From assembly GCA_029858565.1 (NCBI GenBank), contig JAOUEV010000042.1:1-32556 (forward strand): a DNA stretch of 32,556 nt. The letters run 5' to 3'. Made by a program: the position numbers and the translations under genes. Positions 3,032 through 22,663 of the stretch are shown one piece after another (within the stretch, counting starts at the first letter, position 1; every line of letters begins with the position of its first letter). The stretch comes from Nitrospirota bacterium. GTDB lineage: Bacteria; Nitrospirota; UBA9217. The notes under the pieces were generated by a model that ran no database searches, was not told where the DNA came from, and was given only the letters and a program-made list of their open reading frames with translations.

Positions 3032-3050
3032 CGGTCATCCCTCGCTCATC

Positions 3051-5789: not shown

Positions 5790-5807
5790 TCGTCATTGCC
5801 CGGCACG

Positions 5808-6459: not shown

Positions 6460-6505
6460 GGCACTCACCTCCCGACAGGTCAGAAGTCCATTTTCTCGGT
6501 CGTGG

Positions 6506-6616: not shown

Positions 6617-6693
<77 letters not shown>

Positions 6694-6779: not shown

Positions 6780-8255
6780 TTACAGGATCTGCGGGGGTTT
6801 CGTGTCCAGGAACACGTTCACCACGGCAGATGACGCGCTCACGTTCCCTACAGCGTCCGATGCAACGGCCGAGAACGCGTTGTTGCCCTCGCGCAGCGGA
6901 ACTTTGAAGGAGAATGCGCCCTTTTCATCTGCCTTGACCGATCCCCGTGAGGCGCTATTCATGTACAACTCCACAAGGGAACCGGGTTCCGCCGTGCCCA
7001 CAACCGTCACCGACGCGTCCTTGGTCACAAAGGGCAGGTCCCCGAGCTTGGGCGCTGTTGGCGGCACGGTCTTCAGGACCACGGTAAGCGTGGCGGGCTT
7101 TGCCTGGTTCCCTGCGCGGTCCACTGCCGTTGCCGTTATGGTGTTGGCGCCTTCAGCCAGATTCACACCGGACAGGGTGAAGCTCCCGTTAGCGACCTGG
7201 ACCGGCGTATTGTTCACTTTCACCACTGCAGCGGAATCATCAACCGCCCCCATGACCGTGACCATTCGCTTATTCGTGACCGCCTGATCCTTCGGCGCGG
7301 TAAGCGTCACCCGGGGGGCCAGCGTATCCACGTTGATCCTGATCGTCGAGGTACCGGTATTCCCCGCGCTGCTCACGGCTTTGGCCGTGATGGTGTTCTG
7401 TCCTTCAGCGAGCGTCACATTGGCCGCGGTGAAGCTCCCGTTTGCAACAGCCGCGATAACGGGCTGAGTGCCTGCAGCGGTCGTAACGATCACCGAAGCA
7501 GCCCTGGAATCTGCAATACCCGATATGGTCGCTGTCCGGGTGTTCAGAAGGCTGTTAACGAGCGGAGATGTGATCTGGACCGTAGGAGGCTTGCTGTCAA
7601 GAATAACGGTTATCGTATCGTTCCCCGTGTTCCCGAAGGGATCGGTCGCGACAGCCATGATGGTATTGTTGCCTTCGACAATGTTCACCCTGGCGCTGAA
7701 CGCCCCGCGGTCCACGCCGGCCGCAATGCCGTTCACGACCACCCGGACCTTTTCGTTGTCCACGGTGCCCGTCACGAGAATGGGCGACTGGTTGATATAC
7801 TGGTCTGCCTTGTGGGACGTGATCTTGATCTTCGGCGGCTGGGTGTGGAGCGTGAACGACCAGGTCACCGAGGCGGGATTGCCGGCCTTGTCGTCAATGT
7901 CCACCTTTACCTTGTGCTGTCCTTCGCTCAAGGGCTGGGCCGGCGTCAGGACGACCTTGTTCGCAGTGGACTGCGCCTGACCGGTCACGTCAACGCCGTC
8001 GAGGTAGATCTTCGTGTCCGCGGGATTTATGCCGATCCCGTCGTCGATGTATTCAGCCGAGATCGTCGGCTTGGCATTGTTGATCAGGCTTCCGTCCTGG
8101 GGGATCAGGCTGGTGTAGATCCGGCCTGCCGCAAGCCGTTTCTCCGCAACCGGCTTCCTGGTTCCCACAGGCTTCTTTGCGTCAGCAGCGAACACTGGAG
8201 AAGCTGAGAAACAGAGTAGAAGTGTCAGAACGAATGCGATCATGCGTCGTACCAC
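6780..8255 (-). CDS. Secreted protein with ~5 tandem bacterial Ig-like domains
   Basis: Signal peptide ending SPVFA-A; repeated units PP-x-V-x-ITSP ... V-x-G ... L-x-EG-x-N-TITA-x-A-x-D-x-AGN; Thr/Val/Ala rich. Confidence 0.85.
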   Translation of the reverse strand: MVRRMIAFVLTLLLCFSASPVFAADAKKPVGTRKPVAEKRLAAGRIYTSLIPQDGSLINNAKPTISAEYIDDGIGINPADTKIYLDGVDVTGQAQSTANKVVLTPAQPLSEGQHKVKVDIDDKAGNPASVTWSFTLHTQPPKIKITSHKADQYINQSPILVTGTVDNEKVRVVVNGIAAGVDRGAFSARVNIVEGNNTIMAVATDPFGNTGNDTITVILDSKPPTVQITSPLVNSLLNTRTATISGIADSRAASVIVTTAAGTQPVIAAVANGSFTAANVTLAEGQNTITAKAVSSAGNTGTSTIRINVDTLAPRVTLTAPKDQAVTNKRMVTVMGAVDDSAAVVKVNNTPVQVANGSFTLSGVNLAEGANTITATAVDRAGNQAKPATLTVVLKTVPPTAPKLGDLPFVTKDASVTVVGTAEPGSLVELYMNSASRGSVKADEKGAFSFKVPLREGNNAFSAVASDAVGNVSASSAVVNVFLDTKPPQIL

Positions 8256-8415: not shown

Positions 8416-8931
8416 ATGCTACTTATCCTCATGGGCCGGTATTTCTTCATGACATCCATCCTGATCGTCACCGGACTCTGCGCAGGTACCTATGGCCGCA
8501 ACGCCATATATGCAGACGATGTGACCCTGTACCAGGATACGATCATACGATCACCCAACAAGGCCAGGCCGTTCAACAATCTCGGCGACGCACTGAAAAA
8601 AGCAGGCAGGACCGGAGAGGCTGCGCCCTACCTTGAACGCGCGCTGGCGATCCAGCCGGAGTATCCCGATGCCCTGAACAACCTGGCCACGGTCTACAGC
8701 AGCATGGGCCGACGCGATGCTGCGCTCGACCTCCTGCTGACAGCGCTCAGGCTGAATCCTGACCATCTCGAGGCACGGCACAATCTCGCACTCGCCTACT
8801 ACGAGTCCGGCCTGATCGTTGAGGCAGAGGAGCAATACCGGCTGCTCATGCAGTTCGCCCCCGGGAGCCATGAAGCCGCCTTTGCCCGGGATATGCTGAA
8901 GATGATCGAGAACCGAAGGTCCAGCCCCTGA
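8416..8931 (+). CDS. Membrane-anchored tetratricopeptide-repeat protein
   Basis: N-terminal hydrophobic helix, then RNAIYADDVTLYQD...SPNKARPFNNLG and ~3 TPRs (ALAIQPEY, ALNNLA, ARHNLA). Confidence 0.85.
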   Translation: MLLILMGRYFFMTSILIVTGLCAGTYGRNAIYADDVTLYQDTIIRSPNKARPFNNLGDALKKAGRTGEAAPYLERALAIQPEYPDALNNLATVYSSMGRRDAALDLLLTALRLNPDHLEARHNLALAYYESGLIVEAEEQYRLLMQFAPGSHEAAFARDMLKMIENRRSSP

Positions 8932-9020
8932 ACCGGACAGCGCCTGAGACTATTTCAGCACTTCATCCTCGGCCCGACGCCTCCTCCATCCTCTTATTGA
9001 CAAGCTCTTGTTACCGTGAT

Positions 9021-9036
9021 AGTTATTACAACAACT
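9021..9036 (+). promoter_or_regulatory. Putative MarR operator downstream of a TTGACA (8997-9002)
   Basis: Imperfect palindrome AGTTATTACAACAACT (12/16 positions self-complementary) just upstream of marR. Confidence 0.5.
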
Positions 9037-9053
9037 TTTTACGGAGCGCTGCC

Positions 9054-9506
9054 ATGGCAAATGAGCCCTATTCACTGTTCTTCCCCCTTGAGAACTCGCC
9101 GGGATTCATCATCTACCGCACTGCCCTGCAAATGAAGTCATCGCTTCAGCGCACCTTCACGCAGCGCGGGTACGATATAACGACCGAGCAATGGAGCATC
9201 CTCCTGAGCCTCTGGGAAAAGGACGGACGGACCCAGCAGGAGATCGCTGACAAGACCTGCAAGGACAAGGCCAATATCACCCGGTTCATCGATGACCTTG
9301 AGCGGGCCGGCTATGTGTCGAGGAAACCGGACCACAAGGACCGGCGAAAGCATGCTGTTCACCTGACCTCCCGGGGCAAGGAACTCCGGAAGGAACTGAT
9401 GCCTATTGTTCGCGACCTGTGGAAATCCATCAACCGGGGCATTTCTCCCCGGGAACTGGCTACGACAACAAAAATCCTTACAAGTATCTTCAAGAACCTG
9501 TCATGA
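9054..9506 (+). CDS. MarR family transcriptional regulator
   Basis: ITTEQWSILLSLWEKDG.TQQEIA...DKANITRFIDDLE..GYV.R.PD..DRR...V.LT..G; ATG at 9054 with GGAG RBS. Confidence 0.95.
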   Translation: MANEPYSLFFPLENSPGFIIYRTALQMKSSLQRTFTQRGYDITTEQWSILLSLWEKDGRTQQEIADKTCKDKANITRFIDDLERAGYVSRKPDHKDRRKHAVHLTSRGKELRKELMPIVRDLWKSINRGISPRELATTTKILTSIFKNLS

Positions 9507-9553
9507 CAGCAGAGAAATCCACCCTGTTGATCGGATTATCGGGATTACCAACT

Positions 9554-9886
9554 ATGATAAAAGAACTACTCAACCGTGTCTTACTTGCGGTGTCCTTGTT
9601 TACAGCGCTGAACCCCTGCCCGGCCGGTGCAGTGACGCTTCAGGAAGGGCTCACGATCGTAACAGAACAGGGACGGGATGCTTCCCTGGCCCGAGCGGAC
9701 GTTCAGGCGGCCCGGGAAGCGCTATCCCTGTCCCGATCGCCCTATCTGCCGACCGTGGACATCTACGCACGTGAGACCTGGCTCAAGGACCAGCCCGAGA
9801 CCAAGACACCCGGGGGTTCTTTTCCCATGTCCCAGGACCTGCTCCAGGCTATGGGACGGGACCTGGCGGGGGCGTACGGGAAATGA
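9554..9886 (+). pseudogene. Internally deleted TolC-family outer membrane efflux protein
   Basis: Signal peptide plus TolC N-terminus (VTLQEGL...ARADVQAARE..SLSRSPYLPTVD) joined in frame to a TolC-like terminal helix (LLQAMG). About 110 aa instead of the usual >400 aa. Confidence 0.7.
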
Positions 9887-11283
9887 GCCTGGAAGCCGAC
9901 CCGCGCGGAGGATTTACTCCGCAGACGACCATCACGGATACTTCAGTCCAGCGCAAGCTTACGATCGCGCTCAGCTCCATCATCTTCTTTTCCGTCCTGA
10001 ACGGTACGATGTTCAATGTATCCATCCCGGACATCGGCCGGGAGTTCAACCTTCTCCCGTCGCAGGTGAGCTGGGTCGTGAGCGGTTACATTATTCTTTT
10101 CGCGCTCGGCACGGTCATCTATGGAAAACTTGCCGACAACCTCCCGGTCAAAAACCTGATTACCTTCGGCCTCATCCTGTTCAGCACCGGCTCGCTCATC
10201 GGTTTTCTCGCCCGCTGGTACCCCATGCTCATTGCCGGCCGTATGGTGCAGGCATCCGGCGCAGGCGCCATCCCCGCCCTTGCCATGCTGGTGACCACAC
10301 GATATTTTCCGGCGGATATCAGGGGCAGGTCACTCGGGATCATTGCCTCGACCGTCGCTTCCGGCGCCGCTGTCGGCCCCCTCATCGGCGGGTTCATTAC
10401 AGGGACGTTCCACTGGCGCTACCTGTTCCTGATCTCCCTGCTCGCGCTGTTCGCGATACCGCACCTTCGCGGGCTCCTGCCGGACGAAGAAAAACATGCG
10501 GTCCGGTTCGACAAGAGCGGCGCGGTCCTCTTGAGCTTCACCGTCGCCGCGCTGCTCCTGTCCGTTACGCTCGGGGCATTGCCCGCCTTCGGCGCTGCAT
10601 GCGTCCTGGGAACCTGGTTCATTCTGCACATCAGACGGGCTGACGCGCCCTTCGTCCCCCCGGCGCTGTTCCGCAACCGGAAATACCGGATCGCCGTCAT
10701 CGCGACATTCTTCACCGTAGGCACCGTTTTCGGCATGATGTTCCTTGTGCCGCTCATGCTCCGGGCGCTCAATAACGCCGGTGCGAGGGAAATCGGGCTG
10801 GTCATGTTTCCGGGAGCACTATCTGCGGCAATCCTTGGGGTCGCGGCGGGGAAGCTTTCGGACAAACGAGGGAGTGTGCCGGTGGTGAGAATCGGCCAGG
10901 CACTGCTGATTGCGGGATTTTTCCTGCTCTCGGTTCTGGCGGGCAATGCACCATGGATCGTTGCCCTGAACCTGATTATCTGTTACGCAGGCTTTTCATT
11001 TCTCCAATCGTCCCTGGCCCATACCGTATCCGCGACACTGCCCCGGGAACAGATGGGCATCGGCATGGGCATCTACAATCTCGTGCTCTTCATGTCCGGC
11101 GGGTTCAGCGCCGCCCTGATTGGCAAACTGCTAGATCTCACAGGCGGCCGGGCGTCGGCGAATGCCGTTTCCGACCTGCCTGCGGCAAGCTCGTACAGCG
11201 TTATTTTTCTTCTTCTTGCCCTTGTGGTCCTGGCTGCGTCAGCATTGTTTCATACAGCGTTTCGCGCCAAAGACCGAAAGTAG
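9883..11283 (+). CDS. MFS DHA2 (14-TM) efflux transporter, TetK/TetL-like
   Basis: FFSVLNGTMFNVSIPDI (motif D1), YGKLAD (motif A), GRMVQASG (motif B), GAAVGPLIGG (antiporter motif C). Confidence 0.9.
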   Translation: MSLEADPRGGFTPQTTITDTSVQRKLTIALSSIIFFSVLNGTMFNVSIPDIGREFNLLPSQVSWVVSGYIILFALGTVIYGKLADNLPVKNLITFGLILFSTGSLIGFLARWYPMLIAGRMVQASGAGAIPALAMLVTTRYFPADIRGRSLGIIASTVASGAAVGPLIGGFITGTFHWRYLFLISLLALFAIPHLRGLLPDEEKHAVRFDKSGAVLLSFTVAALLLSVTLGALPAFGAACVLGTWFILHIRRADAPFVPPALFRNRKYRIAVIATFFTVGTVFGMMFLVPLMLRALNNAGAREIGLVMFPGALSAAILGVAAGKLSDKRGSVPVVRIGQALLIAGFFLLSVLAGNAPWIVALNLIICYAGFSFLQSSLAHTVSATLPREQMGIGMGIYNLVLFMSGGFSAALIGKLLDLTGGRASANAVSDLPAASSYSVIFLLLALVVLAASALFHTAFRAKDRK

Positions 11284-11299
11284 AGAAAATCGCGACTAT

Positions 11300-11638
11300 C
11301 TATATCAGCTTTATGCACGTTGAAATCACTACTGAAACTAGCATAAGACCCGAGATTAGATAAAGCTGTTTTATCGCTTTATCAGTTGAAACCTCCTCCT
11401 TGAATAAGGCTCCGAGAAGAACAACTTTCGCATACAACGTCACGGCCAAGGTAAGAGCTGTGAATATCACGGCCGTTGGAAACAACCATTTCAAATTCGC
11501 TGATACATTTACTTTTTCTATTGCAGTCAGCAAGAAACCCAAAACTGCTATTTGCGCGGTAATCATAAACTTGAAATAATCAGCCAGCTTGTCGAATTTA
11601 AACGTATTTGAGTATTTTTCCTGATTCATTTCCTTCAT
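11300..11638 (-). CDS. Small hypothetical membrane protein (3 TM), last gene of the AT-rich operon
   Basis: 112 aa with three hydrophobic segments; AGGAGG RBS overlapping the livF stop. Confidence 0.7.
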   Translation of the reverse strand: MKEMNQEKYSNTFKFDKLADYFKFMITAQIAVLGFLLTAIEKVNVSANLKWLFPTAVIFTALTLAVTLYAKVVLLGALFKEEVSTDKAIKQLYLISGLMLVSVVISTCIKLI

Positions 11639-11650
11639 TATGTTTTCCTC

Positions 11651-12355
11651 CTATCCTCCAAGAAATGCTGATTTAACTTTTTCGTTCTCAATTAACATAT
11701 CCCCTTTATCTTCCATAAATATACCGCCTATTTTAAATACATATCCTCGCTGGGCTATTTCAAGTGCCATTCGTGCGTTTTGTTCAACGAGGAGAATGCT
11801 AGTTCCAGCTTTGTTGATTTCGATCAATTTATCGAAGATTACATCCACATAAACCGGAGACAAGCCGAGCGATGGTTCATCGGCAAGGAGAAGCTTTGGC
11901 TTCTGTATCAGTGCCCTCCCGAGTGCTAGAAGCTGCTGTTCTCCGGTCGAAAGTACACCTGCCTTCTGCTTTCTTTTTTCTTTAAGCGAAGGGAACATGT
12001 CGAGGATATTCTCGATATCAGCTTTAATATCGCCATTCTTCCGATTGAACGCGCCCATCTCAAGATTCTCTATGACCGTCATGGAATGAAACAATCTCCG
12101 GCCTTCTGGCACAAGCGAGATACCCAGAGGTACGTGCTCATCAGGCCTCAAGGCGCTGATGCTGCTGCCATCGAACAACATATCGCCTGAGTGCAAAGGG
12201 ACCATACCGAACACAGCTTTGAGGGCCGTTGACTTCCCCGCGCCATTCGGTCCGATCATAGCCACGATCTCGCCTTGATTGACGTTAAAAGAAACGTCCT
12301 CAATGGCCTTAACCGAACCATAGTAGACTGCTATGTTCATGGCTTCAAGAAGCAA
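11651..12355 (-). CDS. livF: Branched-chain amino acid-type ABC transporter ATP-binding protein (LivF-like)
   Basis: GPNGAGKST, VPEGRRLF, LSTGEQQ, DEPSLGLSP, VEQN; probable TTG start at 12355 overlapping the livG stop. Confidence 0.92.
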   Translation of the reverse strand: MLLEAMNIAVYYGSVKAIEDVSFNVNQGEIVAMIGPNGAGKSTALKAVFGMVPLHSGDMLFDGSSISALRPDEHVPLGISLVPEGRRLFHSMTVIENLEMGAFNRKNGDIKADIENILDMFPSLKEKRKQKAGVLSTGEQQLLALGRALIQKPKLLLADEPSLGLSPVYVDVIFDKLIEINKAGTSILLVEQNARMALEIAQRGYVFKIGGIFMEDKGDMLIENEKVKSAFLGG

Positions 12356-13118
12356 TCTTTCTTCCCTTTCCCATATATGCTTCCAATACAACGGGATTGT
12401 TCCGAATCTCCGTGGGGGTGCCTTCGGCTATTTTGCTTCCGTGATTCAACACAACGATGTGGTCGGATATATCCATCACGACCTTCATATTGTGTTCGAT
12501 AAAGAGGATGGTTTTACCTCTTGTCTTAAGATCTGCGATAATCGACATAAGTTTCGGTATCGTATTCGGAAAGACCCCCGCTGTGGGTTCATCGAAAAGA
12601 TAAAAATCGGAGTCAGTCCCGAGCGTTCGGGCGATTTCGAGAAGCCTTCGTTGGCCATGGGACAGATTCTCCGCACGGTCGTCAAATTTCTCCTCCAGAC
12701 CGACTGTTTTAAGCAACTCCATCGCCTTTTCAGTGTTCTCTTTTTCTTGTTGGATCAAAGATGGCGATCTCAGCAATGCAGCAAGGAGGGTCTCACCGCT
12801 ATTGTACTCAAGCCCGAGCATTACGTTTTCAAGCACAGTCATTTGAGGAAACAACCTAATGGCTTGAAAAGTTCGCCCCATCCCAAGGTGAAATATCTTG
12901 TTCGGGGAGAGATGAGTGATATCTCTATCATTGAACCTTACACTACCTGTTGTTGGGCGATAAAAGCCTGTAATAACATTGAATGATACTGTTTTCCCAG
13001 ACCCGTTCGGACCGATCAGAGCTGTTACGGCTCCCTTCTTAACGTTGAAAGACAGTTCGTTAACTGCCTGAATTCCGTCAAAGCGTTTCGACAGATTATG
13101 TACTTGAAGGATGTTCAT
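12345..13118 (-). CDS. livG: ABC transporter ATP-binding protein (LivG-like)
   Basis: GPNGSGKT, GRTFQ.IRLF, LSHGQRRLLEIAR, DEPTAG, IEHNM, V.EAY.G. Confidence 0.92.
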   Translation of the reverse strand: MNILQVHNLSKRFDGIQAVNELSFNVKKGAVTALIGPNGSGKTVSFNVITGFYRPTTGSVRFNDRDITHLSPNKIFHLGMGRTFQAIRLFPQMTVLENVMLGLEYNSGETLLAALLRSPSLIQQEKENTEKAMELLKTVGLEEKFDDRAENLSHGQRRLLEIARTLGTDSDFYLFDEPTAGVFPNTIPKLMSIIADLKTRGKTILFIEHNMKVVMDISDHIVVLNHGSKIAEGTPTEIRNNPVVLEAYMGKGRKIAS

Positions 13119-13988
13119 CTACCTGAACCGGTAATCCCCGATTATCCCCTGCGGTCTCTTGAGCATCAGAAGCACTAATAGGCCGCCGTATATCATCTGC
13201 CTGAGCGGCGCGGCAACGGAGCTAGGCATTCCAAGGAACCTGAGCATTTCAGGTAATATCACAAGTGTCAACGCACCGACAAACGAGCCTTTAATGCTTC
13301 CCATTCCACCGAAAACAACCATCAACAGCACGGCTATGGACTCCATAACAGTAAAACTTGAAGGATCAATAAAAGTAATGTAATGAGCATACAGACTTCC
13401 GGCTATCCCGGCAAAAAAAGCGCCAATAACAAAGACCGTGATCTTATATCGGTTGACGTTTTTCCCTATTGAAAGGCTTGCAACTTCATCCTCCCTAATA
13501 CTTCGTAGGACCCTTCCAAAGGGAGAATCAACTACTCGATTAATGATAAAGGTTGTGAATACAATGAAGACTAACACGAAAATGAGATAAGCCCAAACAG
13601 GTTGAAGCTCGTAACTAAAAAAGGAAAACTTAGGAATCCCTGGGAGCCCCATCGGCCCCCTCGTGAGATCAATCCAGTTTTTCGATATTGAATAAACGAT
13701 GACGCCGAAGCCAAAAGTCGCAAGGGCGAGGTAATCCCCTTTGAGCCTTATAGACGGGAACGCGATAACAAAACCAAAGAAAGATGCCGCACAAGCCCCT
13801 ACAATCAAACCGATCCACGGAGATATGCCGAAGTTTAATGCCAGGATACCCGATGAATAGGCACCTATGCACGCAAAGGCGATATGACCGAGTGCAGGAA
13901 GTCCGGTATAGCCGATGATTAGATTGAGGCTAAGGGTAAGAATGATATAGATACCAGCGATTATTAGAATATGTAGCAGATATGCCAT
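13119..13988 (-). CDS. livM: ABC transporter permease (LivM-like)
   Basis: SLNLIIGYTG...GHIAF..IGAY, RLKGDYLALAT, TRGPMGL, FGRVLRSIREDE, GGMGSI.G. Confidence 0.92.
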   Translation of the reverse strand: MAYLLHILIIAGIYIILTLSLNLIIGYTGLPALGHIAFACIGAYSSGILALNFGISPWIGLIVGACAASFFGFVIAFPSIRLKGDYLALATFGFGVIVYSISKNWIDLTRGPMGLPGIPKFSFFSYELQPVWAYLIFVLVFIVFTTFIINRVVDSPFGRVLRSIREDEVASLSIGKNVNRYKITVFVIGAFFAGIAGSLYAHYITFIDPSSFTVMESIAVLLMVVFGGMGSIKGSFVGALTLVILPEMLRFLGMPSSVAAPLRQMIYGGLLVLLMLKRPQGIIGDYRFR

Positions 13989-14867
13989 CTATAGATTCTC
14001 CCTATCCGTCCTCTTGCCTAAAATTCCCTCAGGTCTAAACAGAAGAAAAGCAATGAGCACAGCAAAGGATATGGTGTCCTTCCAGCCCGCCTGAATCTTC
14101 CATATACCAAGATTTTCTACGATGCCGAGAAAAAAGCCTCCTAGAACGGCCCCAGGTATGCTCCCGAGCCCACCAATGATAGAAGCAATTATCCCTTTAA
14201 GTATCAAGTTCAGCCCCATAGTCGGTTCAATACTTGATTCAAGGGAGATCAAGCCACCAGATAGCCCCGCAAGAGCAGAACCGATACCAAAGGAATAAAT
14301 GATTATCCGTTCAGGATTAATTCCGGAAATACTTGCGCCAAGAGGGTCGTCCGCAACAGCTCTGATAGCCTTGCCAATTCTTGTCTCTACGACAACTGAA
14401 CGAATAAGGACCAACAATAGACAACTTATAACTATTATCGATATCTGCACGTTCGTAATGGTGCCCCCCATTATCAAATGCCCCTCGCTAACAGGTCCTG
14501 TTTTGAGAGAAAGAATCTGGGCGCCATAGAGAATTTGAAAAAGGTTTTGTATGAAGATAAATATGCCGAAGGAAGTAATGGCTAATATTAGATTAGAAGA
14601 GCCTATCACTCTCAAATAAGAATATGTTGTTTTATAAATAACAATACCAAGAACGGTTGTTATTAAGGAAGAAACAACTATCGATAATAAAAGGGGAATA
14701 CCGACAAAGCATGAAAGGCTATACGCAATATAAGCACCTGCAACAATCACTGAGCCATGAGCAAAATGAAAGAAGCGAATAGTTTTATAAATTATTGCAA
14801 AACTCAGAGCCACTAGGGAATAGATGCCGCCTACTACCAACCCAAATATAAGTATACTGGTAAAAAT
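13989..14867 (-). CDS. livH: ABC transporter permease (LivH-like); probable ATT start
   Basis: GGIYSLVALSF...FHFAHG, TRIGKAIRAVADD, IIGGLGSIPGA, RPEGILG. The frame is open back to ATT at 14867, 5 nt after AGGAGG. The ORF track start is TTG 14840. Confidence 0.88.
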   Translation of the reverse strand: MFTSILIFGLVVGGIYSLVALSFAIIYKTIRFFHFAHGSVIVAGAYIAYSLSCFVGIPLLLSIVVSSLITTVLGIVIYKTTYSYLRVIGSSNLILAITSFGIFIFIQNLFQILYGAQILSLKTGPVSEGHLIMGGTITNVQISIIVISCLLLVLIRSVVVETRIGKAIRAVADDPLGASISGINPERIIIYSFGIGSALAGLSGGLISLESSIEPTMGLNLILKGIIASIIGGLGSIPGAVLGGFFLGIVENLGIWKIQAGWKDTISFAVLIAFLLFRPEGILGKRTDRENL

Positions 14868-15686
14868 TTACTCCTCCTGTTTATCTTTGTTATTGATTTC
14901 AGTCAGAATGAGGTTCACTCTTCCCATTAGAGGTTTATATGATATAAGAGGTAAAAGCCATGATGTTGCATAAAGTATTAATGATAAACTTAAAACTCCG
15001 AGAATAACGTGCAAAGGGAAAGAAGCTTGATGCAAATACAATTTTCTAATATCCTCTACGCCCAAAGCGGAACTATTCAGCATAAAATAATCAAATGAAA
15101 ACCTGGAAAGTATAATGACTAGATTTGCGGTAAACGCAATCCATATATTCCTATAACATTCAAAACCGCGAATTTTACCAGTCGACCAATACTTGATTAA
15201 TATCGTTTTTTGGTATGTATTAATTAGAAAATAAGATCCCAACGAAAACAGAGCATAAACGAATAACTCTAGAAATAAACATATGCTAGATGTAAGCCAA
15301 TATTTTTCCGGACTAAAGGAAGAAAGATATATAGTGATTCCGACAAATGCCGAAAAAATAACTAATGCCATACTCTGAGTAACTATAAAATCTACGACGT
15401 ATACGAACCTAGGAATGCTATCCTCTAAGCTATTAAATTTTTCCTCGATTTTTTTAAGCTTATTTTCGCTTTTTTCCTTTTCATCATCAGTTAGACTAGC
15501 ATCCTTCTGGATCTTCTTATTATCTTCTTTAGCCTTATCAAGCTCTTCATGAGATTGCTCCAGTTCATCGACCAGCTCTTTTACATATGAATACACCAGC
15601 GCTGGCAAAAATGCTGCCAAAGCCATCGCGATAGCCAAAAATTGAAAAGCCATTTGCGACATCAGGCTATTATCCAAATTATCCAC
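14868..15686 (-). CDS. Hypothetical multi-pass membrane protein with a charged coiled-coil loop
   Basis: 272 aa: N-terminal TM, ~55-aa K/E-rich coiled coil, then ~4 TM segments; GTG start with GGGAGG RBS; AT-rich codon usage. Confidence 0.75.
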   Translation of the reverse strand: MDNLDNSLMSQMAFQFLAIAMALAAFLPALVYSYVKELVDELEQSHEELDKAKEDNKKIQKDASLTDDEKEKSENKLKKIEEKFNSLEDSIPRFVYVVDFIVTQSMALVIFSAFVGITIYLSSFSPEKYWLTSSICLFLELFVYALFSLGSYFLINTYQKTILIKYWSTGKIRGFECYRNIWIAFTANLVIILSRFSFDYFMLNSSALGVEDIRKLYLHQASFPLHVILGVLSLSLILYATSWLLPLISYKPLMGRVNLILTEINNKDKQEE

Positions 15687-15696
15687 AAAACCTCCC

Positions 15697-16626
15697 TTAT
15701 TCTGGAATCAATAAAGCGGCAATATCTTTCAATGGTTGTTTGAGACGATCAATCTTCAACTGTTTGACGCTATTAATTGCCTTTAGGCAATAATATTTTG
15801 CTTTTCGCTTGCTATATTGAATTGATCCGATTTCATTTAGAACTGATATAACATCTTTTATATCGTTTTCGGTTACATCTTTTTTGCTATAAACAATCTT
15901 TATCTTATCTACTTGTTTTGCACTCCCAAAACGCAAAGCGTGAATAATCGGCAACCTGACTTTCTTTTCCTTGATATCACCGCCAACCAGTTTTCCCATG
16001 CTTACGGTATCTGAAATGAGATCCACGACGTCATCTTTAATCTGATACGCCATCCCGATATTCAGACCGTAGTTATTAAGGAGATTATATGTCGGCTTAT
16101 TAAAACCATTGATGATTGAACCGATAATCAGAGGGAGTTGAATAAAAGATGCTGTTGTCTTTTGAATCATCCCATAGTAACCTTTTTCAGTAAAACTCCA
16201 TTTATCAACATCTTTGGTTACTCGAATATCCTCCAATTGTCCTAAGCAAACGGTCCTGTAGGTATCTTCAAAAACCAACATGCACTTAATGCGAGTCTTG
16301 CTGTCAATTTCTGGTAGTTTCTCTAATGCTTGTATTGCGGCGATACTCGCTGATGATTTTAACAATTCGGCAATCAGAACCGTTTGTTCCTCACCGAATC
16401 GAGAAAGTAACGAGGGAATACCGTTACGGATAGGAGATTTATCTAAGAAATCATCCATAATTAGCGTGGATGATTTCATCAACTCAAAACACTTTGCCAA
16501 TTCCAAATGATGCTTACTTGTTTTTCTCGGCATGAGCACGCCGTAAAGTGTAGTTATAAGATGAATTTGCTCTTTTTCAAAACTGAGCTGCTCAGCTATC
16601 AACTCATCAACGATAGGCATCATCAC
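15697..16626 (-). CDS. Divergent polyprenyl synthetase (trans-isoprenyl diphosphate synthase) family protein
   Basis: FARM DDFLD...R.G, GQLED, QKT, G...G.AYQIKDDVVD (SARM), GK..GGDIKEKK..LP.IHAL. The GGKRxRP and ELxH motifs are not conserved. Confidence 0.88.
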   Translation of the reverse strand: MMMPIVDELIAEQLSFEKEQIHLITTLYGVLMPRKTSKHHLELAKCFELMKSSTLIMDDFLDKSPIRNGIPSLLSRFGEEQTVLIAELLKSSASIAAIQALEKLPEIDSKTRIKCMLVFEDTYRTVCLGQLEDIRVTKDVDKWSFTEKGYYGMIQKTTASFIQLPLIIGSIINGFNKPTYNLLNNYGLNIGMAYQIKDDVVDLISDTVSMGKLVGGDIKEKKVRLPIIHALRFGSAKQVDKIKIVYSKKDVTENDIKDVISVLNEIGSIQYSKRKAKYYCLKAINSVKQLKIDRLKQPLKDIAALLIPE

Positions 16627-16784
16627 TTTTTTCTATTTTTAAGAAAACTTCCTGTTCCTTTCAGTAGTTTTTTAACATCCCCGACGTTAAATGCTGCTTT
16701 TGAATAACCATTCTGCGCTACTGTGGTCAGCGACGCCGGCAAACCATTCTTCTTAATTCTTTCGTCAGGTGGAAACTGTCCCAT
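16623..16784 (-). CDS. 53-aa ORF, either a separate peptide or the frameshifted N-terminus of the prenyltransferase
   Basis: Manual translation: MGQFPPDERIKKNGLPASLTTVAQNGYSKAAFNVGDVKKLLKGTGSFLKNRKK*. Strong AGAGGAGG RBS; ends AGA AAA AAG TGA, overlapping the GTG/ATG of the next ORF. Below the ORF-track length cutoff. Confidence 0.65.
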   Translation of the reverse strand: MGQFPPDERIKKNGLPASLTTVAQNGYSKAAFNVGDVKKLLKGTGSFLKNRKK

Positions 16785-16796
16785 AATATCCCTCCT

Positions 16797-17909
16797 CTAA
16801 TGTTTCAATAATTTAACTTCTATAGGCTTATGGACATCGCCATTCTTATCAAATTCAATTAAACCTGAAGCCCCATCATGTTTTTTGATATTCATTAAGC
16901 TTTTTCCGATACTTTCACCGTCGAGACCGCCGCCCATTTCAACAGCCTTTTTAAAAAGCATAACGGCATCATACCCCACATCTGCTAATGCAGGAGGCGC
17001 TTTCTTATATTTCAAGAGGAACTTATCCTTAAAATTCTTCGTTGATAACGTATCCGAAATAAATGGTACTGGATAGTATAATTCATAGTTATTCTTCTTT
17101 ATAACATCTGTCACGGTACCATCCAGCATCACTGTCGTCCCAAGCCAAATCCCTTTATATCTCATTTCCTTTGCCTGCTGAATAATTTTCACGCAATCCT
17201 TTGAATAACCAACGAGATAAATTGCCTCAGGCTTGTTAGAAAGTAATTTTGCTAATTGCGTGCGGTACTCAGGCGAACCCTGCTCAAAAGATTCAACATT
17301 TGCGGGTTTGAGGCCTCTCTCACTTAACTGAGATCGGAACACTTCTGATAGTCCAAGACCATAATCGTTATTTGCATATAAAACTCCGATATTTTTCAAC
17401 TTCAACTTATCGACGGCATATCTTGCTAATTCTTCGCCTTCTAAGGAGTCTGAATTCCATATTCTAAAAATATACTCACCTGCCTGAGAAATCTTAGGTG
17501 CTGTGGAGCCTGTAGACAATAAAACCACTTTGTTTTTCTCAGCTATTGGAGCCAGCGCCAGAGTCACCGAACTGATGCTATCATCTACCACATATGAAAC
17601 ATGATTAACATTGATGAGTTTATTAAGCGCTGAAACCGCATTTCGGGGATCGGCTTGTGTGTCTTCATAAACTATTCTGATCTTCTTGCCATCTAATCCT
17701 GACTGATTGATCTCACTTACAGCCAGTTCCATGCCTTCACGTGTGTTTATTCCTGCTATTGCAGCGTCGCCCGTCAATGGTAATACTGCCCCTATCTTTA
17801 TTTCTTTTTCATCCTTCTTCACACACCCCAAAGAAAAGACGACCAAAGCAGCCATGAGAATCAGGATTAGCTTGCGTAGTGATGTAAACATATTCTTGGA
17901 TATTTTCAT
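16797..17909 (-). CDS. ABC transporter substrate-binding lipoprotein (LivK/LivJ, PBP1 type)
   Basis: Lipobox SLG-C; IKIGAVLPLTG..A..G....G.ELA..EIN, YED, NNDYG.G, GYDA, GASG.I.FD.NGD. Confidence 0.92.
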   Translation of the reverse strand: MKISKNMFTSLRKLILILMAALVVFSLGCVKKDEKEIKIGAVLPLTGDAAIAGINTREGMELAVSEINQSGLDGKKIRIVYEDTQADPRNAVSALNKLINVNHVSYVVDDSISSVTLALAPIAEKNKVVLLSTGSTAPKISQAGEYIFRIWNSDSLEGEELARYAVDKLKLKNIGVLYANNDYGLGLSEVFRSQLSERGLKPANVESFEQGSPEYRTQLAKLLSNKPEAIYLVGYSKDCVKIIQQAKEMRYKGIWLGTTVMLDGTVTDVIKKNNYELYYPVPFISDTLSTKNFKDKFLLKYKKAPPALADVGYDAVMLFKKAVEMGGGLDGESIGKSLMNIKKHDGASGLIEFDKNGDVHKPIEVKLLKH

Positions 17910-17982: not shown

Positions 17983-18417
17983 TTACGAATTCTCTTTTTT
18001 CAACGCTCGGAGTATTCTTCGTATACAACCTTCTTTGTTGCTCTTCAATTGATGCTGCCAAATGCGTATGACTTTCCAATCTCGTGCTCGAAGTTTTCTG
18101 ATATTTTGACGATCACGTCTTCTATTTTCTGTCAGTTTCTTTCGCCAGAACGCAGTTAATTTGTGTTCCCACGCTGGCAACCTCCATCCATGCCAAAAAT
18201 CACCATCCACGAACACCGCGAGCTGCTGCTTCATAAACACGATGTCCGGGCTGCCTGGCAGAGATCGAACATGCCGCTGAAATTTGTAGCCGCGTGACCG
18301 AAGCTCTTTTTGAACGATTATTTCAATAGAACCATCTTTGAGTTTTACGCTCTTCATCGCACGCGAGCGTTGCTCCGGCGTTAAGTGGTCTCGATCGCGA
18401 TATTTCCATTCCTTCAT
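17983..18417 (-). CDS. vsr: Very short patch repair endonuclease
   Basis: D.LTPEQRS..M..VK, LPGSPDIV, FVDGDFWHG, FW..K...N..RD, W.VIRIW. Confidence 0.95.
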   Translation of the reverse strand: MKEWKYRDRDHLTPEQRSRAMKSVKLKDGSIEIIVQKELRSRGYKFQRHVRSLPGSPDIVFMKQQLAVFVDGDFWHGWRLPAWEHKLTAFWRKKLTENRRRDRQNIRKLRARDWKVIRIWQHQLKSNKEGCIRRILRALKKENS

Positions 18418-20375
18418 ATTTGATTGACGAGTTGTTGTATGCGTGAAATTTTCTGATTTTTATCGAGATAATCCGCGTAACTTTCCCGCGTCTGCCTGAT
18501 CAACTGCTCATAAGTGATATATCTGGCTCCCAAGACTTCCAACATTCTGCGGTTGTTATCATCGTAATCAGTCGGCTCGGGACGGTCTCCTAATATGCAA
18601 ATAGTCTCGATGCTGTGTCGCTTTACATCCGGATAAGCTTTGGCGAGACACTTTTCCAGGGCGGTCATGTACTTTCGAACTTGCGCTGTCAACTCTTCGA
18701 TCTGCACTTTTCTGTCGTATTTCTTAAGTTCTAAGATGATGTGTTTTCCAGCGGCGGTCCTATAACGAATGTCGATTCGACCACGCTTCTCTTCCTTCGT
18801 CAAGCCTGCATCCAACTTCTTCCAATCTTTTGTAACAGCCTCTTCCATTCGTTTGTCGGTCGACGCGCGCTCCCACGAGGGATCTAATAGCCACAAATGA
18901 GCGAAGATATAATCACGTATTACGGTCTCACGTTCTTTTGGTGCGATTTTCTCGAATTTCTGTAAAACGGCGACGCGCGTTTTCGTGATATGCCAGTAAT
19001 GCGCAGCTTCCAATTCGTCGATATCTTTGAAAATCTCTATTAAGCGTTGCAAATCCTCGTGACTCTCGAATTTGTCGAGTACGTCGAGATTGTCTTTTGC
19101 AGCCAGCGTCTCGAAGGCTAGAATGCCGTGCTGATAGAGCGTTTTTCGGAATTCCTGATCTTGAACTGGGAAAGACGCGATTTTTCCGAGTAGCTTCTTC
19201 GCAAATTTCTTATGACGTGGATTGAGGGTCTTGAACCACTCGTCGATCGCGGGGTTCTTGAGCGCCTCAGCGCCCTTATCCTCGTTCCGCCAATCCGTCC
19301 ATACATTCCCAATATGGTTGAGAATCATGTCCTTCACGAACGTCTTCAGTTGCCGGTACCGAGAGTCGCTTTCCTTGACGCTTTGACGGTCGCTCGTCGC
19401 GATATCCGCAAGATCATCACGATCCAAAAAATCCGCTCGTAATTCGCCGATCAGATACTTGCTGAATACCCGGCCCTCCTTGAGATCAGGCAGGATGTTT
19501 TCATGTATGACTTTACCGCGAGCGAGGATCACGATGCCGTTGTTTACTTCTTCGAGATTCTTGTGCTCGGCCATCGTCCCGACCCACCCAGATACCTCGT
19601 ACGCGTGCGTCCCGTCGACAGTTCCCGATAACGTTTCGTGCCTTAGCGTTTTTCCTTGCTTGAGGTACGTTTCGTTTTTTTCGCCAACGAACCAAATATA
19701 TTCGAGCTTACCGAAATAATCGCGGTCCTCGACGGTGATAGATTTATCGTTGATGCGAACGTTAAAACCAGTGCTTTTCCCTATGACGCTGAAACGCCGC
19801 GCAAGCCGTCTGCGTAGAAAAGACTCCGTAACATTCGCGTCGATCTTCAGGTCACGAAGCGTTAGGAGCGTACCCTTCTTGATTTTGATCCGATTTTCCG
19901 GCAGTGGATCGGGTTTGTATTCAGGCTGCCTGCCAGGCTGTTGTTTTCTGATCTCCGATTCAATGTCCGTGGCGCTCATGACGAAACCATTGCGCTCGAC
20001 GATTTTCCCGTGCTTGTCGAGCTTCACGCTATGAACTTCGATGGTATTTGCGATGGAGAAGAGGGCGAGTTTGCCGATTCCTTTTCGCCCCATCGGGAGA
20101 CGGCCTTTCGGTATCTGGGCATTTTTGTCTTCACGCTTCCGGTACCCGACTTTCAAAAAACGGTCGTTGATTTCCGCTTCAGTCATGCCCCAGCCGTCGT
20201 CCGAGACGGTTATAGTCGCGCTCGCAGTGTCGATGTTTATATCGACCACTTTGGCGTCGGCGTCCCATGCATTGGCAACAACTTCGGATAACACCGCTGG
20301 AATGTTGCTGTAAAGTCCGATGCCGAGATGTTCGAGCGTGGCGAGGTCTATGGTTAGCCTATATTCTTTTTTCAT
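18414..20375 (-). CDS. GHKL/MORC-type ATPase fused to a C-terminal PD-(D/E)xK nuclease (HgiDII/BbrUII-like restriction enzyme)
   Basis: LEHLG..LYS, EVVANAWDADA, DDGWGM, GRKGIGKL (GHKL motifs); HLWLLDPSWE; RIDIRY...IILELKK nuclease motif; ATG at 20375 overlaps the end of the MTase. Confidence 0.88.
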   Translation of the reverse strand: MKKEYRLTIDLATLEHLGIGLYSNIPAVLSEVVANAWDADAKVVDINIDTASATITVSDDGWGMTEAEINDRFLKVGYRKREDKNAQIPKGRLPMGRKGIGKLALFSIANTIEVHSVKLDKHGKIVERNGFVMSATDIESEIRKQQPGRQPEYKPDPLPENRIKIKKGTLLTLRDLKIDANVTESFLRRRLARRFSVIGKSTGFNVRINDKSITVEDRDYFGKLEYIWFVGEKNETYLKQGKTLRHETLSGTVDGTHAYEVSGWVGTMAEHKNLEEVNNGIVILARGKVIHENILPDLKEGRVFSKYLIGELRADFLDRDDLADIATSDRQSVKESDSRYRQLKTFVKDMILNHIGNVWTDWRNEDKGAEALKNPAIDEWFKTLNPRHKKFAKKLLGKIASFPVQDQEFRKTLYQHGILAFETLAAKDNLDVLDKFESHEDLQRLIEIFKDIDELEAAHYWHITKTRVAVLQKFEKIAPKERETVIRDYIFAHLWLLDPSWERASTDKRMEEAVTKDWKKLDAGLTKEEKRGRIDIRYRTAAGKHIILELKKYDRKVQIEELTAQVRKYMTALEKCLAKAYPDVKRHSIETICILGDRPEPTDYDDNNRRMLEVLGARYITYEQLIRQTRESYADYLDKNQKISRIQQLVNQI

Positions 20376-21447
20376 CGCTACACTCGGCCTCCACATGTCG
20401 CTTGATGGATTTGCCTACCACTGCACCTAGCCGGACGGGGACCGCATTGCCGATCATTCTACCAATCGTTTTAAAACTGATGTCTTCACCGCGCCGGACG
20501 AATTCGTAGCTTCGCGGGAACGACTGGAGTATCGCGCCCTCGCGCAGTGATATCGCTCGGTTTTGTTCAGGATGCCCAAATCTACCGTTGCCGAAACCGA
20601 AGAACTGTGTCGTGATCGTCGGGGCAGGCTCGTCCCATTTCATCCGGCCATAGACGCTTGGATAGGTTCTACCCTTCTTCTTGCGATGACATTTCGCGAC
20701 AAGCTCTTTGGGCCAATCTCGCCATGTGCCGCCTGGCTGCGAGTTACGAATTCGGCTTAGGTTCGTATCCGACAATGCGCTGCTGCGATGGAGTGGATCG
20801 GCCTGGCATGTTTCGCCGGCCTGGAGTCTAGGTAGATGATCAATCACGTCTTTGACGACGGCATATTTCTCTGGGTTGTGTGTGGGTGGGATGATCTGAA
20901 TGGGGCCGAGCAACGACGCGAACAAGACGAGCCGTGTCCGATGCTGAGGGATGCCATAGTCCGGGCAGAAAACTTCGTGCGTTGATACGTAATACCCGAG
21001 ATCTCGCAGCATCGCGAGAAATTCATCGTATATGGAATGCCGCTGTAACTGCGGTACATTCTCCATACTCACGACATGAGGCTTCAATTCACCGACCAGT
21101 CTTCCAAAATGTGCAAGGAGACCCCATTTCTCATCAGCTACAGTTTTAAGACCCTGAGTGTACTTAGAAAAAGGCTGACACGGTGCGCAACCGACGAGAA
21201 CGCACACAGCATCTGCCGGATAAAATGCCTTGAGTTGTTTCCCGCTGATATCAGTGACGCTTTTTTTCTTAAAGATTGCCGGTCGGTTGTTTTTTTCATA
21301 AGGATAGCGGCATGCCTCGTCTATGTCGAAACCTGCGACGACTCGAATGCCGGAGTCGAGCAGGCCACGTGTCAGTCCACCTGCGCCGCAAAATAAATCT
21401 GCGGCGACAATATTTCGATTGTCCAACTTAGGCTGTTGCATCTTCAT
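20359..21447 (-). CDS. dcm: DNA (cytosine-5)-methyltransferase
   Basis: DLFCGAGG (I), CAPCQPFS (IV), ENV (VI), PQHRTR (VIII), REGAILQSFP (IX), IGNAVP (X). Confidence 0.96.
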   Translation of the reverse strand: MKMQQPKLDNRNIVAADLFCGAGGLTRGLLDSGIRVVAGFDIDEACRYPYEKNNRPAIFKKKSVTDISGKQLKAFYPADAVCVLVGCAPCQPFSKYTQGLKTVADEKWGLLAHFGRLVGELKPHVVSMENVPQLQRHSIYDEFLAMLRDLGYYVSTHEVFCPDYGIPQHRTRLVLFASLLGPIQIIPPTHNPEKYAVVKDVIDHLPRLQAGETCQADPLHRSSALSDTNLSRIRNSQPGGTWRDWPKELVAKCHRKKKGRTYPSVYGRMKWDEPAPTITTQFFGFGNGRFGHPEQNRAISLREGAILQSFPRSYEFVRRGEDISFKTIGRMIGNAVPVRLGAVVGKSIKRHVEAECSDEKRI

Positions 21448-21547
21448 AGCAGGATAGGTGAGTTTAATTTAGCGAAAAATGCAATCCTTCGGTAGCCATG
21501 GTTCATAAAGAGAATGAGACGCGGAGCGTTACATGCTTCTCGCATGC

Positions 21548-22663
21548 TCATGCCCGCGTCTTCTGGTACATTTCATCCGATATACTCTTGGCGATATCGA
21601 GCATGCCGTACATCATGCCGCACGTATCCGTGTCGCCTGCGAACCCCGTTGTGACTGTTGCTTTTGCAGCTTGGAGAGCACATTTTACCTGAATCAACGC
21701 TTCCTGAAAACGCCTCGCGTCACCCAAACTGATCTCGTGCGCCCGTTGCAGGCTTATGCCTGATCTGAGGGCATAGAGTGCCTGCTTGTTGCCGATAACT
21801 CGCTTGAGATAGCCCAAATGGGGATTTTGCTTCTCGACGACAGGCGATTTGGCTTCCGACTTGCTGCCGAATAGCCATACCATGAGTTCCTGAAGTTGCG
21901 GCAGGTGACTCTTGGGAACAGGGTCATCTTGTAATGACCGTTCAGGGTCGATATTCAGGAACTTCTGGAATTCCTTCTCAGCGGCCGCGGTATAAAGATG
22001 TGAAAAATGAAAACGGTTGGCGATCCGATCGTCCCGATCAAAATCTGTCTTCTTCTCCGCCTGCTCAAGCAAGACGAAACCACGATAGATTCGCGTGACC
22101 GTGCTGTGTTGGTCGCCGATCTTACGGGCTATCTCATCGAGTGGGATGTCCCATTCCCTGCGAACTTTGGCAATATAGGCTGCCTTGCTGAACGAATCCC
22201 ATTCTTTCGGGCCATTTACGTGGCGGAAGCCGAAGTACTCCCATAGTGACTTTTTGTCCGGATAGACCGAAACCGGCAATTGTTCCAGGTCCTTGCGCCG
22301 TTGAGCGCTGATTTTAGGAAGGTCTGTCGCTTTTACAGCACGACGCAGGTCCGCGTCTATCAGTAATTTAACTACTGCAAGGCGACGATTTCCTTCGACA
22401 ACGATATATTTCTGTTTCTTTTCGTCCTTCTCAAGTGGATGCTTTGGAACGACAAAGAGCGGTTCCTCTTCAAAATATCCGTTCGCCTCGATAGATAAAG
22501 CAACCTCGCTGACGGCCATTTCATCCCAGAGAACTTGAACAAGAGCATCTTGTGATTGTTTGTCACCGATTGCGCTGAGGCGCGGATTATCCTCATCGAA
22601 CAAAAGTCGATCTACGTCGATGGATTTTATTACTAGTTGCTTATGTTCGTATTTTAATGCCAT
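21548..22663 (-). CDS. ParB/Srx-like N-terminal domain protein
   Basis: LLFDEDNPRL, SI..NGY...EP..V, VVEGNRRL, RHVNGPKEW, central HTH-like LDEIARKIG; GGAG RBS. Confidence 0.8.
   Translation of the reverse strand: MALKYEHKQLVIKSIDVDRLLFDEDNPRLSAIGDKQSQDALVQVLWDEMAVSEVALSIEANGYFEEEPLFVVPKHPLEKDEKKQKYIVVEGNRRLAVVKLLIDADLRRAVKATDLPKISAQRRKDLEQLPVSVYPDKKSLWEYFGFRHVNGPKEWDSFSKAAYIAKVRREWDIPLDEIARKIGDQHSTVTRIYRGFVLLEQAEKKTDFDRDDRIANRFHFSHLYTAAAEKEFQKFLNIDPERSLQDDPVPKSHLPQLQELMVWLFGSKSEAKSPVVEKQNPHLGYLKRVIGNKQALYALRSGISLQRAHEISLGDARRFQEALIQVKCALQAAKATVTTGFAGDTDTCGMMYGMLDIAKSISDEMYQKTRA

Follow-up and report, generated by a model that had tools for sequence, protein, structure and literature searches.

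The 32,556-nt contig JAOUEV010000042.1 of a Nitrospirota bacterium, which we refer to in its whole length as the window, carries on its minus strand, between positions 11300 and 17909, an operon in which the genes of an ATP-binding cassette (ABC) importer of the Liv (HAAT) type enclose the gene of a protein related to the isoprenyl diphosphate synthases (IDSs). The Liv set is complete and begins with the operon's first gene, that of a substrate-binding protein (SBP; 16797..17909), a lipoprotein with a Peripla_BP_6 domain (186 bits) and a lipobox-like LGC motif. It is followed by an open reading frame (ORF) for a small basic protein of 53 aa that begins with MGQF and falls into no Pfam or NCBIfam family (16623..16784), the IDS-like enzyme (15697..16626; polyprenyl_synt, PF00348), an all-helical membrane protein of 272 aa, also without a Pfam or NCBIfam family (14868..15686), two BPD_transp_2 permeases of the LivH type (13989..14840; 129 bits) and the LivM type (13119..13988; 178 bits), and two ABC ATPases, one of the LivG type with ABC_tran and the branched-chain C-terminal motif BCA_ABC_TP_C (12345..13118) and one of the LivF type (11651..12391; ABC_tran, 105 bits). 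The row ends, 12 nt past LivF, with a hydrophobic ORF of 112 aa (11300..11638; GC 0.383) that matches no family in either collection and whose membership in the operon is uncertain because it had no tblastn match in the loci examined; no dedicated database search was made for it.

A first-pass annotation of this DNA had described nine tightly packed, AT-rich minus-strand genes, and all nine ORFs were found between 11300 and 17909, separated by gaps of 0–27 nt and overlapping at the 53-aa/IDS and LivG/LivF junctions. The GC content is 0.34–0.46 per gene and 0.41 for the operon, against 0.553 in the left and 0.542 in the right flank, and the second Liv set that the same annotation had placed at 28.6–31.3 kb is likewise present; the whole genome holds eight BPD_transp_2 genes. 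Start codons are ambiguous for the IDS gene, the 272-aa gene and LivF, whose TTG start overlaps LivG by 47 nt, so that the real LivF start probably lies further downstream. A scan of the operon for promoters and terminators was uninformative, with 9 promoter-like sites where 17.4 would be expected and 5 terminator-like ones where 6.0 would be.

The IDS-like enzyme and its small partner

A search of 5.8 billion proteins with the enzyme returned 28 matches, about 20 of them at 41–79% identity, after which identity drops to 31% or less. From 66 genome and 80 metagenome loci that were fetched (146 together), 124 gave, at E<=1e-5, an enzyme ORF in the expected orientation and 22 were dropped; 17 of the 124 belong to the clade described here and 107 do not. 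In a maximum-likelihood tree of 127 rows, from which rows shorter than 260 or longer than 400 aa had been excluded and 7 exact duplicates removed, 32 rows including the window are split off by a branch with a support of 99 in the Shimodaira–Hasegawa-like approximate likelihood ratio test, and these divide into subclade A (25 rows, the window among them; support 100) and subclade B (7 rows; support 95). Measured against the tree, the motif pattern mislabelled one archaeal row and missed two clade rows. The enzyme was not found in 3 genomes of the same genus or 21 of the same family and is therefore not a housekeeping protein; of 16 further genomes in the phylum one has it, and this genome matches locus L004, from a Nitrospirota metagenome-assembled genome.

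By sequence the enzyme shares the fold family of the chain-elongating trans-IDSs (PF00348, 154.9 bits against a gathering score of 27), and its closest solved relatives are ordinary medium- and long-chain synthases such as 4jxy (90 bits) and 1wy0; among its relatives in JGI, seven are named geranylgeranyl pyrophosphate synthase and one octaprenyl-diphosphate synthase. It was aligned with the two canonical synthases of the host genome (257 and 216 bits) and with more distant relatives. As in the chain-elongating enzymes, both Asp-rich motifs are kept (DDFLD and DDVVD), together with Lys, Arg, Thr and Gln residues around the allylic site, and an alignment of 14 family members shows D58, D59, D62, R67, Q130, T157, T158, Q195, D198, D199, D202, K212, D217 and K222, which surround the allylic diphosphate site, to be invariant. 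From these retained motifs we propose that the enzyme may be catalytically competent. Ahead of the first Asp-rich motif, positions -4 and -5 hold small, non-aromatic residues (T, S), which leave room for long donors.

The other half of the canonical active site, which handles isopentenyl diphosphate (IPP), is changed. The second arginine of the RRG motif and the C-terminal tail of canonical synthases both have roles in IPP handling, and in heteromeric medium-chain IDSs the large subunit keeps the full IPP clamp. The window enzyme, unlike such large subunits, has lost the full clamp: RRG has become RNG, its second Arg being replaced by Asn, and the C-terminus is without the basic tail of the canonical enzymes. 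RN(G/N) was found in 16 of 16 clade loci that cover the site and was pattern-matched in no other fetched locus; outside the clade the site is mostly RRG, in some loci RHG or RRN, and in part of the loci the pattern matched no motif. The basic motif of region I (GGKRxR type) is absent from subclade A, in which E17, E19 and H22 are invariant, and in subclade B, which keeps the full-length N-terminus, region I reads G-L-R-x-R-P, with Lys replaced by Leu. In the available part of one study, this basic region-I motif is described as holding the IPP diphosphate (PMC6140472). As judged from these alignments, then, the IPP clamp is lost across the clade and the ionising machinery is retained, and ordinary chain elongation is unlikely because the residues that clamp IPP are gone. 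All 16 matching NCBIfam synthase models score below their cut-offs (the best, IdsA, at 148 bits against 468; the hexaprenyl large-subunit model at 92 against 500). The enzyme thus differs from chain-elongating trans-IDSs in its changed or absent region I, the missing second Arg of RRG, the missing basic tail, the failure to reach any equivalog cut-off, the small partner ORF and the setting in an importer operon; "non-canonical", the word chosen by the first-pass annotation, is borne out on the first two of these points and by the equivalog scores.

Two kinds of repurposed IDS invite comparison. The IDS-derived terpene synthase of the insect Murgantia histrionica likewise combines two intact Asp-rich motifs with a replaced basic IPP motif, and neither -4 nor -5 is aromatic in it (PMC6140472); it differs in having arisen independently, in a eukaryote, and in having neither a small partner nor a transporter beside it. 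With ComQ, PalQ and StheQ the enzyme shares the placement of an IDS-fold gene beside the gene of a peptide of about 50–70 aa, and for PalQ, too, peptide binding has been approached by structure prediction (PMC10853753, in the text at hand). In the same text ComQ has the first Asp-rich motif and lacks the second, and what is available of the StheQ preprint describes a single Mg site with a pseudo second motif, whereas the second motif is intact here; the portion of a 2026 review available to us gives Trp as the target of all characterised trans-IDS-like peptide prenyltransferases (PMC13290415), and the adjacent peptide has none. The intact second motif and the missing Trp mean that the family is not a member of the ComQ type, and the analogy to ComQ drawn earlier for this locus therefore fails, even if the family might still work in a way related to ComQ. 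No ComQ-named entry occurred among the 16 NCBIfam matches or the best 60 PDB matches of the enzyme.

The 53-aa ORF, which the first description passed over, is by its conservation a genuine gene and the enzyme's constant partner rather than filler. Its ATG has AGGAGG 7 nt upstream, and at the other end the stop overlaps the beginning of the IDS gene. A small ORF of 50–75 aa that begins with MG(Q/E) and a hydrophobic residue adjoins the enzyme in 15 of the 17 clade loci, the other two being truncated by contig ends. It lies directly upstream of the enzyme in the window, L004 and L070-74, and directly downstream in nine loci (L075, L076, L078-84). Outside the clade the crude MG(Q/E) pattern occurred in 2 of 107 loci, once as the start of a long protein and once as a match that was lost on an end-anchored search. 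A profile search of the 5.8 billion proteins found 13 relatives of the small protein, all unnamed, whose contigs, where they can be compared, equal enzyme-bearing ones in length. The peptides of subclade A (type A) have an LPxSL element and a helix-turn motif that closes in G-x-G; those of subclade B (type B) have only the first 13 residues in common, with hypervariable tails in which a Cys stands near the C-terminus in 5 of 8. Among the 16 aligned peptides M1 and G2 do not vary, and 15 of them, the window's included, have no Trp; the window peptide has no Cys either, and no nucleophilic residue is conserved across the aligned peptides. The five type B endings with Cys (L078:2506-2718, L079:922-1095, L082:10938-11150, L083:1197-1367 and L084:750-962) include one of CaaX and two of CCxx shape, which resemble the prenylation signals of eukaryotes. 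An origin of the small protein as an N-terminal helix detached from the enzyme was not supported, as hhalign gave a probability of 8.9%, to a different region, and local-alignment z-scores were mostly below 2.6 against shuffles.

Structure prediction for the window enzyme together with the small protein gave a complex score of 0.71, the best of three controls reaching 0.28. Of 157 solved complexes 116 attain this mark, as do 2 of 215 mismatched pairs, a calibration that is only rough since custom alignments were used. The runs agree in at least 93% of contacts, with a predicted local distance difference test score (pLDDT) of at least 71 for the partner, and the predicted interface comprises enzyme residues 6-52, 88-96, 158, 194 and 297-305 and peptide residues 1-41. 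By alignment these enzyme residues correspond to the former region I, the C-terminal tail, T158 of KTT and Y194 of the YQ that precedes the second Asp-rich motif. The small protein is thus predicted to cover the face of the enzyme at which IPP would bind, and the model points to a heteromer of the two.

Liv linkage, interchangeable cargo and the binding protein

The first-pass annotation had asked whether homologues of the enzyme are linked to Liv genes elsewhere and had named this in advance as one of the points on which its proposal could fail. Liv neighbours were called by tblastn with the window proteins, on the same strand and within 6 kb. Liv permease or SBP genes lie near the enzyme in 15 of 17 clade loci and in 1 of the 107 others (L091), so that the linkage is both present and specific. 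The gene order of the linked loci is constant, running from the SBP through the intervening genes, here called cargo, to LivH-M-G-F, and the linkage extends to Liv engines that are only 47-55% identical in LivM (L074, L078, L082). Just upstream of the SBP in one linked locus, and divergent from it, lies a B12-binding radical SAM protein (L080:5742-7217; HpnJ-/BchE-like at about 115-120 bits, below cut-offs), only 26% identical to the B12-binding radical SAM cargo of L162 described next.

The transporter itself is found with other cargo. LivM, the best-conserved component of the engine, was used as a probe, first on 400 genomes from the phylum and afterwards on 150 from a single order; this found LivM proteins 80-83% identical to that of the window in six further genomes, the next best being 51% identical; LivH is 67% identical to its counterpart in L004 and 57% to that in L080. 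One of the six is the L004 genome, and in the others the gene content between SBP and LivH differs. It consists of a B12-binding radical SAM protein, a metallophosphoesterase and a flavin reductase in G305 (L162), of two unknown proteins and a ThiH-like radical SAM enzyme (178 bits, below cut-off) in G236 (L163), of a GGDEF protein and two PIN toxin-antitoxin cassettes in G376 (L161), and of a radical SAM-SPASM enzyme, a 223-aa membrane protein and toxin-antitoxin cassettes in G429 (L165); in G220 the contig stops inside LivH and the cargo is not readable. Since the same engine occurs with unrelated cargo, the transporter is not isoprenoid-specific. The LivM proteins of L161-163 and L165 are 80-91% identical to those of the window and L004. 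Between L004 and L161-163, LivM is 88-91% identical and the SBP only 36-42%, and between cargo types in general SBP identity is only 33-46%. The SBPs that accompany IDS-type cargo are 43-50% identical across subclades, even where LivM is only 47-55% identical, and that of the window is 68-70% identical to the SBP of L004. These comparisons suggest that SBP identity follows the cargo and not the engine, and that SBP and enzymes travel jointly as a specificity module on a conserved engine.

Several peculiarities of these related loci concern LivH. In L161 (4474-7975) the first ~118 nt of LivH are present in three copies, 67-80% identical, and in L165 a 24-codon LivH fragment is repeated (8577-8651 and 10040-10264); the repeats surround PIN, HicB and DUF4258-MqsA toxin-antitoxin cassettes, and their arrangement suggests that cassettes enter at the 5' end of LivH, which becomes duplicated in the process. 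L165 also holds a large serine recombinase (1987-3453). The window operon has no LivH 5' duplication, its repeats being only short and at chance level. LivH is in two frames, of about 74 and then about 200 aa, in L161 (~8044-8053), L162 (~5342-5351), L163 (~6463-6472) and L165 (~10225-10234); the genes of L161-163, when compared with the intact one of L004, are a base short behind a stretch of nine T, and the LivH of the window is intact. A shared frameshift, slippage on the T run or a homopolymer error of assembly could each account for this. Just upstream of the SBP in L162, a 69-aa ORF with a Tyr/Glu-rich C-terminus (10690-10899) is a possible precursor peptide.

The five-component architecture of the importer, its domain families and part of its ligand pocket are those of E. 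coli LivJ/K-HMGF. In contrast to that system, every component stays below its NCBIfam equivalog cut-off (LivJ 143 bits against 477, LivH 125 against 379, LivM 218 against 366, LivG 259 against 362, LivF 240 against 441), the SBP is a lipoprotein, enzyme genes stand between SBP and LivH, and the operon is AT-rich and island-borne. The best-scoring solved relative of the SBP is 3td9 (152 bits), LivJ itself (1z15) scoring 92 bits. In an alignment of the SBPs with E. coli LivJ and LivK, the LivJ columns Ser79, Thr102, Tyr150 and Tyr202, which we take from the LivJ/LivK structures to contact the carboxylate of the ligand, are kept in all six IDS-linked SBPs. The column of Glu226, which presumably contacts the alpha-ammonium group, differs from that of LivJ, being Thr in the window and L004 and Val in L074 and L080-82; solved amino-acid binders have Asp (3td9, 4gnr) or Glu (4n0q) there. 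The solute bound by the SBP thus probably carries a carboxylate and is without a free alpha-ammonium group, a soft lead from aligned columns. The earlier suggestion that the operon does not serve amino acid uptake accordingly gains from the missing acidic residue at this column, though a conserved Asp/Glu four columns on stands in the way of a firm call.

Of the two orphan membrane proteins that the first-pass annotation had noted, both are indeed without a family; conservation of the 272-aa protein is confined to loci of the enzyme's closest relatives, and the 112-aa ORF is unmatched. The 272-aa protein has five close homologues, all on contigs that match enzyme-bearing ones in length, and 26 representatives among 1.84 billion proteins, with a Pfam family in 0 of 22 scanned; it is absent from L072 and from subclade B. 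Its N-terminal helix of 31 residues is identical to that of L004 despite synonymous changes in the DNA. An AlphaFold2 (AF2) model (pLDDT 76.8) is all-helical with six long helices, for which Foldseek found no match in the PDB at E<=0.001. A match to organic solute transporter alpha (VIA-align Z 13.1) was not used, as designed helical bundles scored 12.6-11, and protein-atlas leads were discarded (best feature score 0.87, TM score at most 0.45). In the subclade B loci and L074, a different protein of about 306 aa without a Pfam family, with N-terminal hydrophobic helices and a soluble domain, is encoded between SBP and enzyme (L074:2568-3488, L078:292-1212, L080:8653-9639, L081:2488-3405, L082:8915-9835); its atlas leads are DUF6879-like and phospholipase D (PLD)-fold proteins only, and its AF2 model (pLDDT 51.9) is unusable.

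An import-and-modify reading and its rivals

The reading that we favour, tentatively and at less than even confidence, is that of an import-and-modify operon gained by horizontal transfer, whose two-part prenyltransferase would not elongate chains and would instead act on an imported solute. The Liv/HAAT importer, composed of SBP and LivHMGF, would bring this solute in, and the two-part enzyme encoded between the SBP and the permease genes would modify it. The IDS-derived subunit would bind and ionise an allylic prenyl diphosphate, presumably farnesyl diphosphate (FPP) or geranylgeranyl diphosphate (GGPP) from the two ordinary synthases of the host; it would no longer clamp IPP, the ~55-aa MGQ protein would sit over the former IPP side, and the pair would transfer the prenyl group to an acceptor other than IPP, most likely the solute imported by the transporter, giving a prenylated metabolite as the product. 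A functional link of import and enzyme is preferred mainly because the SBP follows the cargo. We also count in its favour that the stand-alone enzyme and small ORF of L076 adjoin the gene of an AsnC-type regulator, and that one of the alternative cargo enzymes belongs with the ThiH family, named after an enzyme that acts on a free amino acid. The first-pass annotation had seen in the operon a module for a prenylated or terpenoid small molecule; of that proposal the Liv linkage and the improbability of chain elongation stand, and the ComQ analogy and the isoprenoid-specific transporter do not.

A number of observations weigh against this reading. Two clade loci, L075 and L076, have the enzyme and the small ORF with no Liv gene within 10 kb, and the pair can therefore act without a dedicated importer. 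The covariation of SBP and cargo rests on nine loci, and the conserved Asp/Glu four columns past the Glu226 column, present in all nine SBPs compared, is a possible substitute, so that a carboxylate ligand lacking a free amine is no more than a lead. Toxin-antitoxin cassettes occupy the same place between SBP and LivH in L074 (PIN), L161 and L165, so that position alone is no proof of function, and an insertion hotspot could account for some of the linkage. The proposed scheme does not explain why the small proteins have hypervariable C-terminal tails, and the 272-aa and 112-aa proteins have no place in it.

Among the rival explanations, a scheme like that of ComX and other ribosomally synthesised and post-translationally modified peptides is unlikely but has to be taken seriously: the MGQ protein would itself be prenylated, either at its N-terminus (on Gly2 after removal of Met, or on residue 3) or in its variable tail, and the Liv system would import the released prenylated fragment or be unrelated. 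Such an acceptor would fit the adjacency of enzyme and small ORF in every readable locus, including those without Liv genes and the nine in which the small ORF lies downstream, as well as the build of the type B peptides, with their conserved 13-residue N-terminus, hypervariable tails, frequent Cys near the C-terminus (5 of 8) and CaaX or CCxx shapes, and the invariant M1 and G2 (16 of 16). Residues 42-53 of the window peptide lie outside the confident interface of the model and could enter a site, and a sister cargo has a radical SAM-SPASM enzyme, a type typical of peptide maturases. Yet the peptides have no conserved nucleophile, that of the window has neither Cys nor Trp, and no protease or exporter gene is present; with 41 of 53 residues in the predicted interface, the small protein appears more subunit- than leader-like, the clade-wide link to an SBP-dependent importer is left unexplained, and both points on which ComQ parts company with this family, the target Trp (PMC13290415) and the missing second Asp-rich motif (PMC10853753 and the StheQ preprint), speak against it as far as the available texts of these sources go. 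Somewhat less probable in our judgement is that the junction of SBP and LivH in a mobile Liv operon is simply an insertion hotspot and that the enzyme, the small protein and the 272-aa protein are hitchhikers functionally unlinked to transport, which would be compatible with any chemistry. Near-identical engines do hold different cargo in G305, G236, G376 and G429, the toxin-antitoxin cassettes of L161 and L165 sit at the same site amid LivH 5' duplications (three copies of 118 nt in L161), the enzyme and small ORF stand alone in L075 and L076, and a large serine recombinase lies near the L165 operon. Against mere hitchhiking, the SBP diverges with the cargo while the engine stays 80-91% identical, IDS-type cargo also occurs with three further, distant Liv lineages, and the window operon is without repeats of the LivH 5' end.

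Two further readings are both improbable. The enzyme could be an IDS-derived terpene synthase or hydrolase that ionises FPP or GGPP and quenches the cation with water or by proton loss, giving a terpene alcohol or hydrocarbon, the small protein serving as a lid or regulator; its motif pattern equals that of the insect enzyme in the part of PMC6140472 available to us, but the constancy of the small partner, the importer link and the cargo-matched SBP would go unexplained. The least probable explanation is that of an ordinary or heteromeric chain-elongating synthase, with the small protein as a non-catalytic subunit as in hexaprenyl and heptaprenyl synthases and the Liv neighbourhood due to chance. 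The Pfam domain score above cut-off, the medium- and long-chain synthases closest among solved structures (4jxy) and the JGI names of eight relatives speak for it; the clade-wide loss of the IPP-clamp residues, the 16 of 16 NCBIfam models far below their cut-offs, the two canonical synthases that the host already has, the failure to find the enzyme in the genomes of the same genus and family and the specificity of the linkage (15 of 17 against 1 of 107) speak against it.

A wider reading might be ventured, though it is more doubtful than the one favoured here: the operon would represent a new family of mobile import-and-modify cassettes, in which a highly conserved LivHMGF engine carries swappable front ends, each a matched SBP with modifying enzymes (the IDS-like/MGQ pair, one of several radical SAM enzymes or a GGDEF protein), and the IDS-like/MGQ pair would form a new class of two-component prenyltransferase, whose acceptor would be either a carboxylate solute taken up by the importer or the invariant N-terminal Gly-Gln of the partner. 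Isoprenyl diphosphate synthases that have been repurposed for new chemistry are rare, examples being ComQ-type peptide prenylation and the insect terpene synthases. If an imported metabolite or the partner were prenylated, this would add a new acceptor class to prenyltransferase biochemistry, and in the case of the partner's Gly-Gln N-terminus a bacterial counterpart of N-terminal lipidation; the pair would in either case make a compact two-gene tool for the lipidation of small molecules or peptides. Interchangeable modules of SBP and enzyme on one engine suggest a general route to uptake-linked metabolism in uncultured sediment bacteria, and one in which pairs of ligand and enzyme become predictable from gene order. 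In titles and the openings of abstracts, within the literature outside subscription journals and supplements, we found no description of this gene arrangement.

Island setting and flanks

Upstream of the operon the AT-rich stretch runs on, through positions 17983-22663 of the window, into four more genes, which encode a Vsr endonuclease (17983-18417), a restriction enzyme of the BbrUII/HgiDII family (18414-20396; NCBIfam, 738 bits, above cut-off), a C-5 cytosine methylase (20359-21447) and, within the same stretch, a 371-aa PD-Lambda-5_A-like protein (PADLOC, 66 bits). As the AT-rich stretch continues into the Vsr, restriction and methylase genes, the operon belongs to an acquired island, and by its gene content the segment in which it lies is defence-island-like. 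PADLOC gave no match at E<=0.001 for the enzyme, the small protein, the 272-aa protein, the SBP, the permeases or the 112-aa ORF, only the two ATPases matching generic ABC-ATPase models. To the left of the operon (969-6693 and 8997-11283) the GC content is host-like, and the genes there include a Fic-domain protein, an SNF2-family helicase with DUF3670, a TumE-type toxin and a tRNA-Met (6617-6693), as well as a MarR regulator beside a DHA2 efflux pump of the major facilitator superfamily, which is Tet(L)-like at 290 bits, far under the cut-off of 650.

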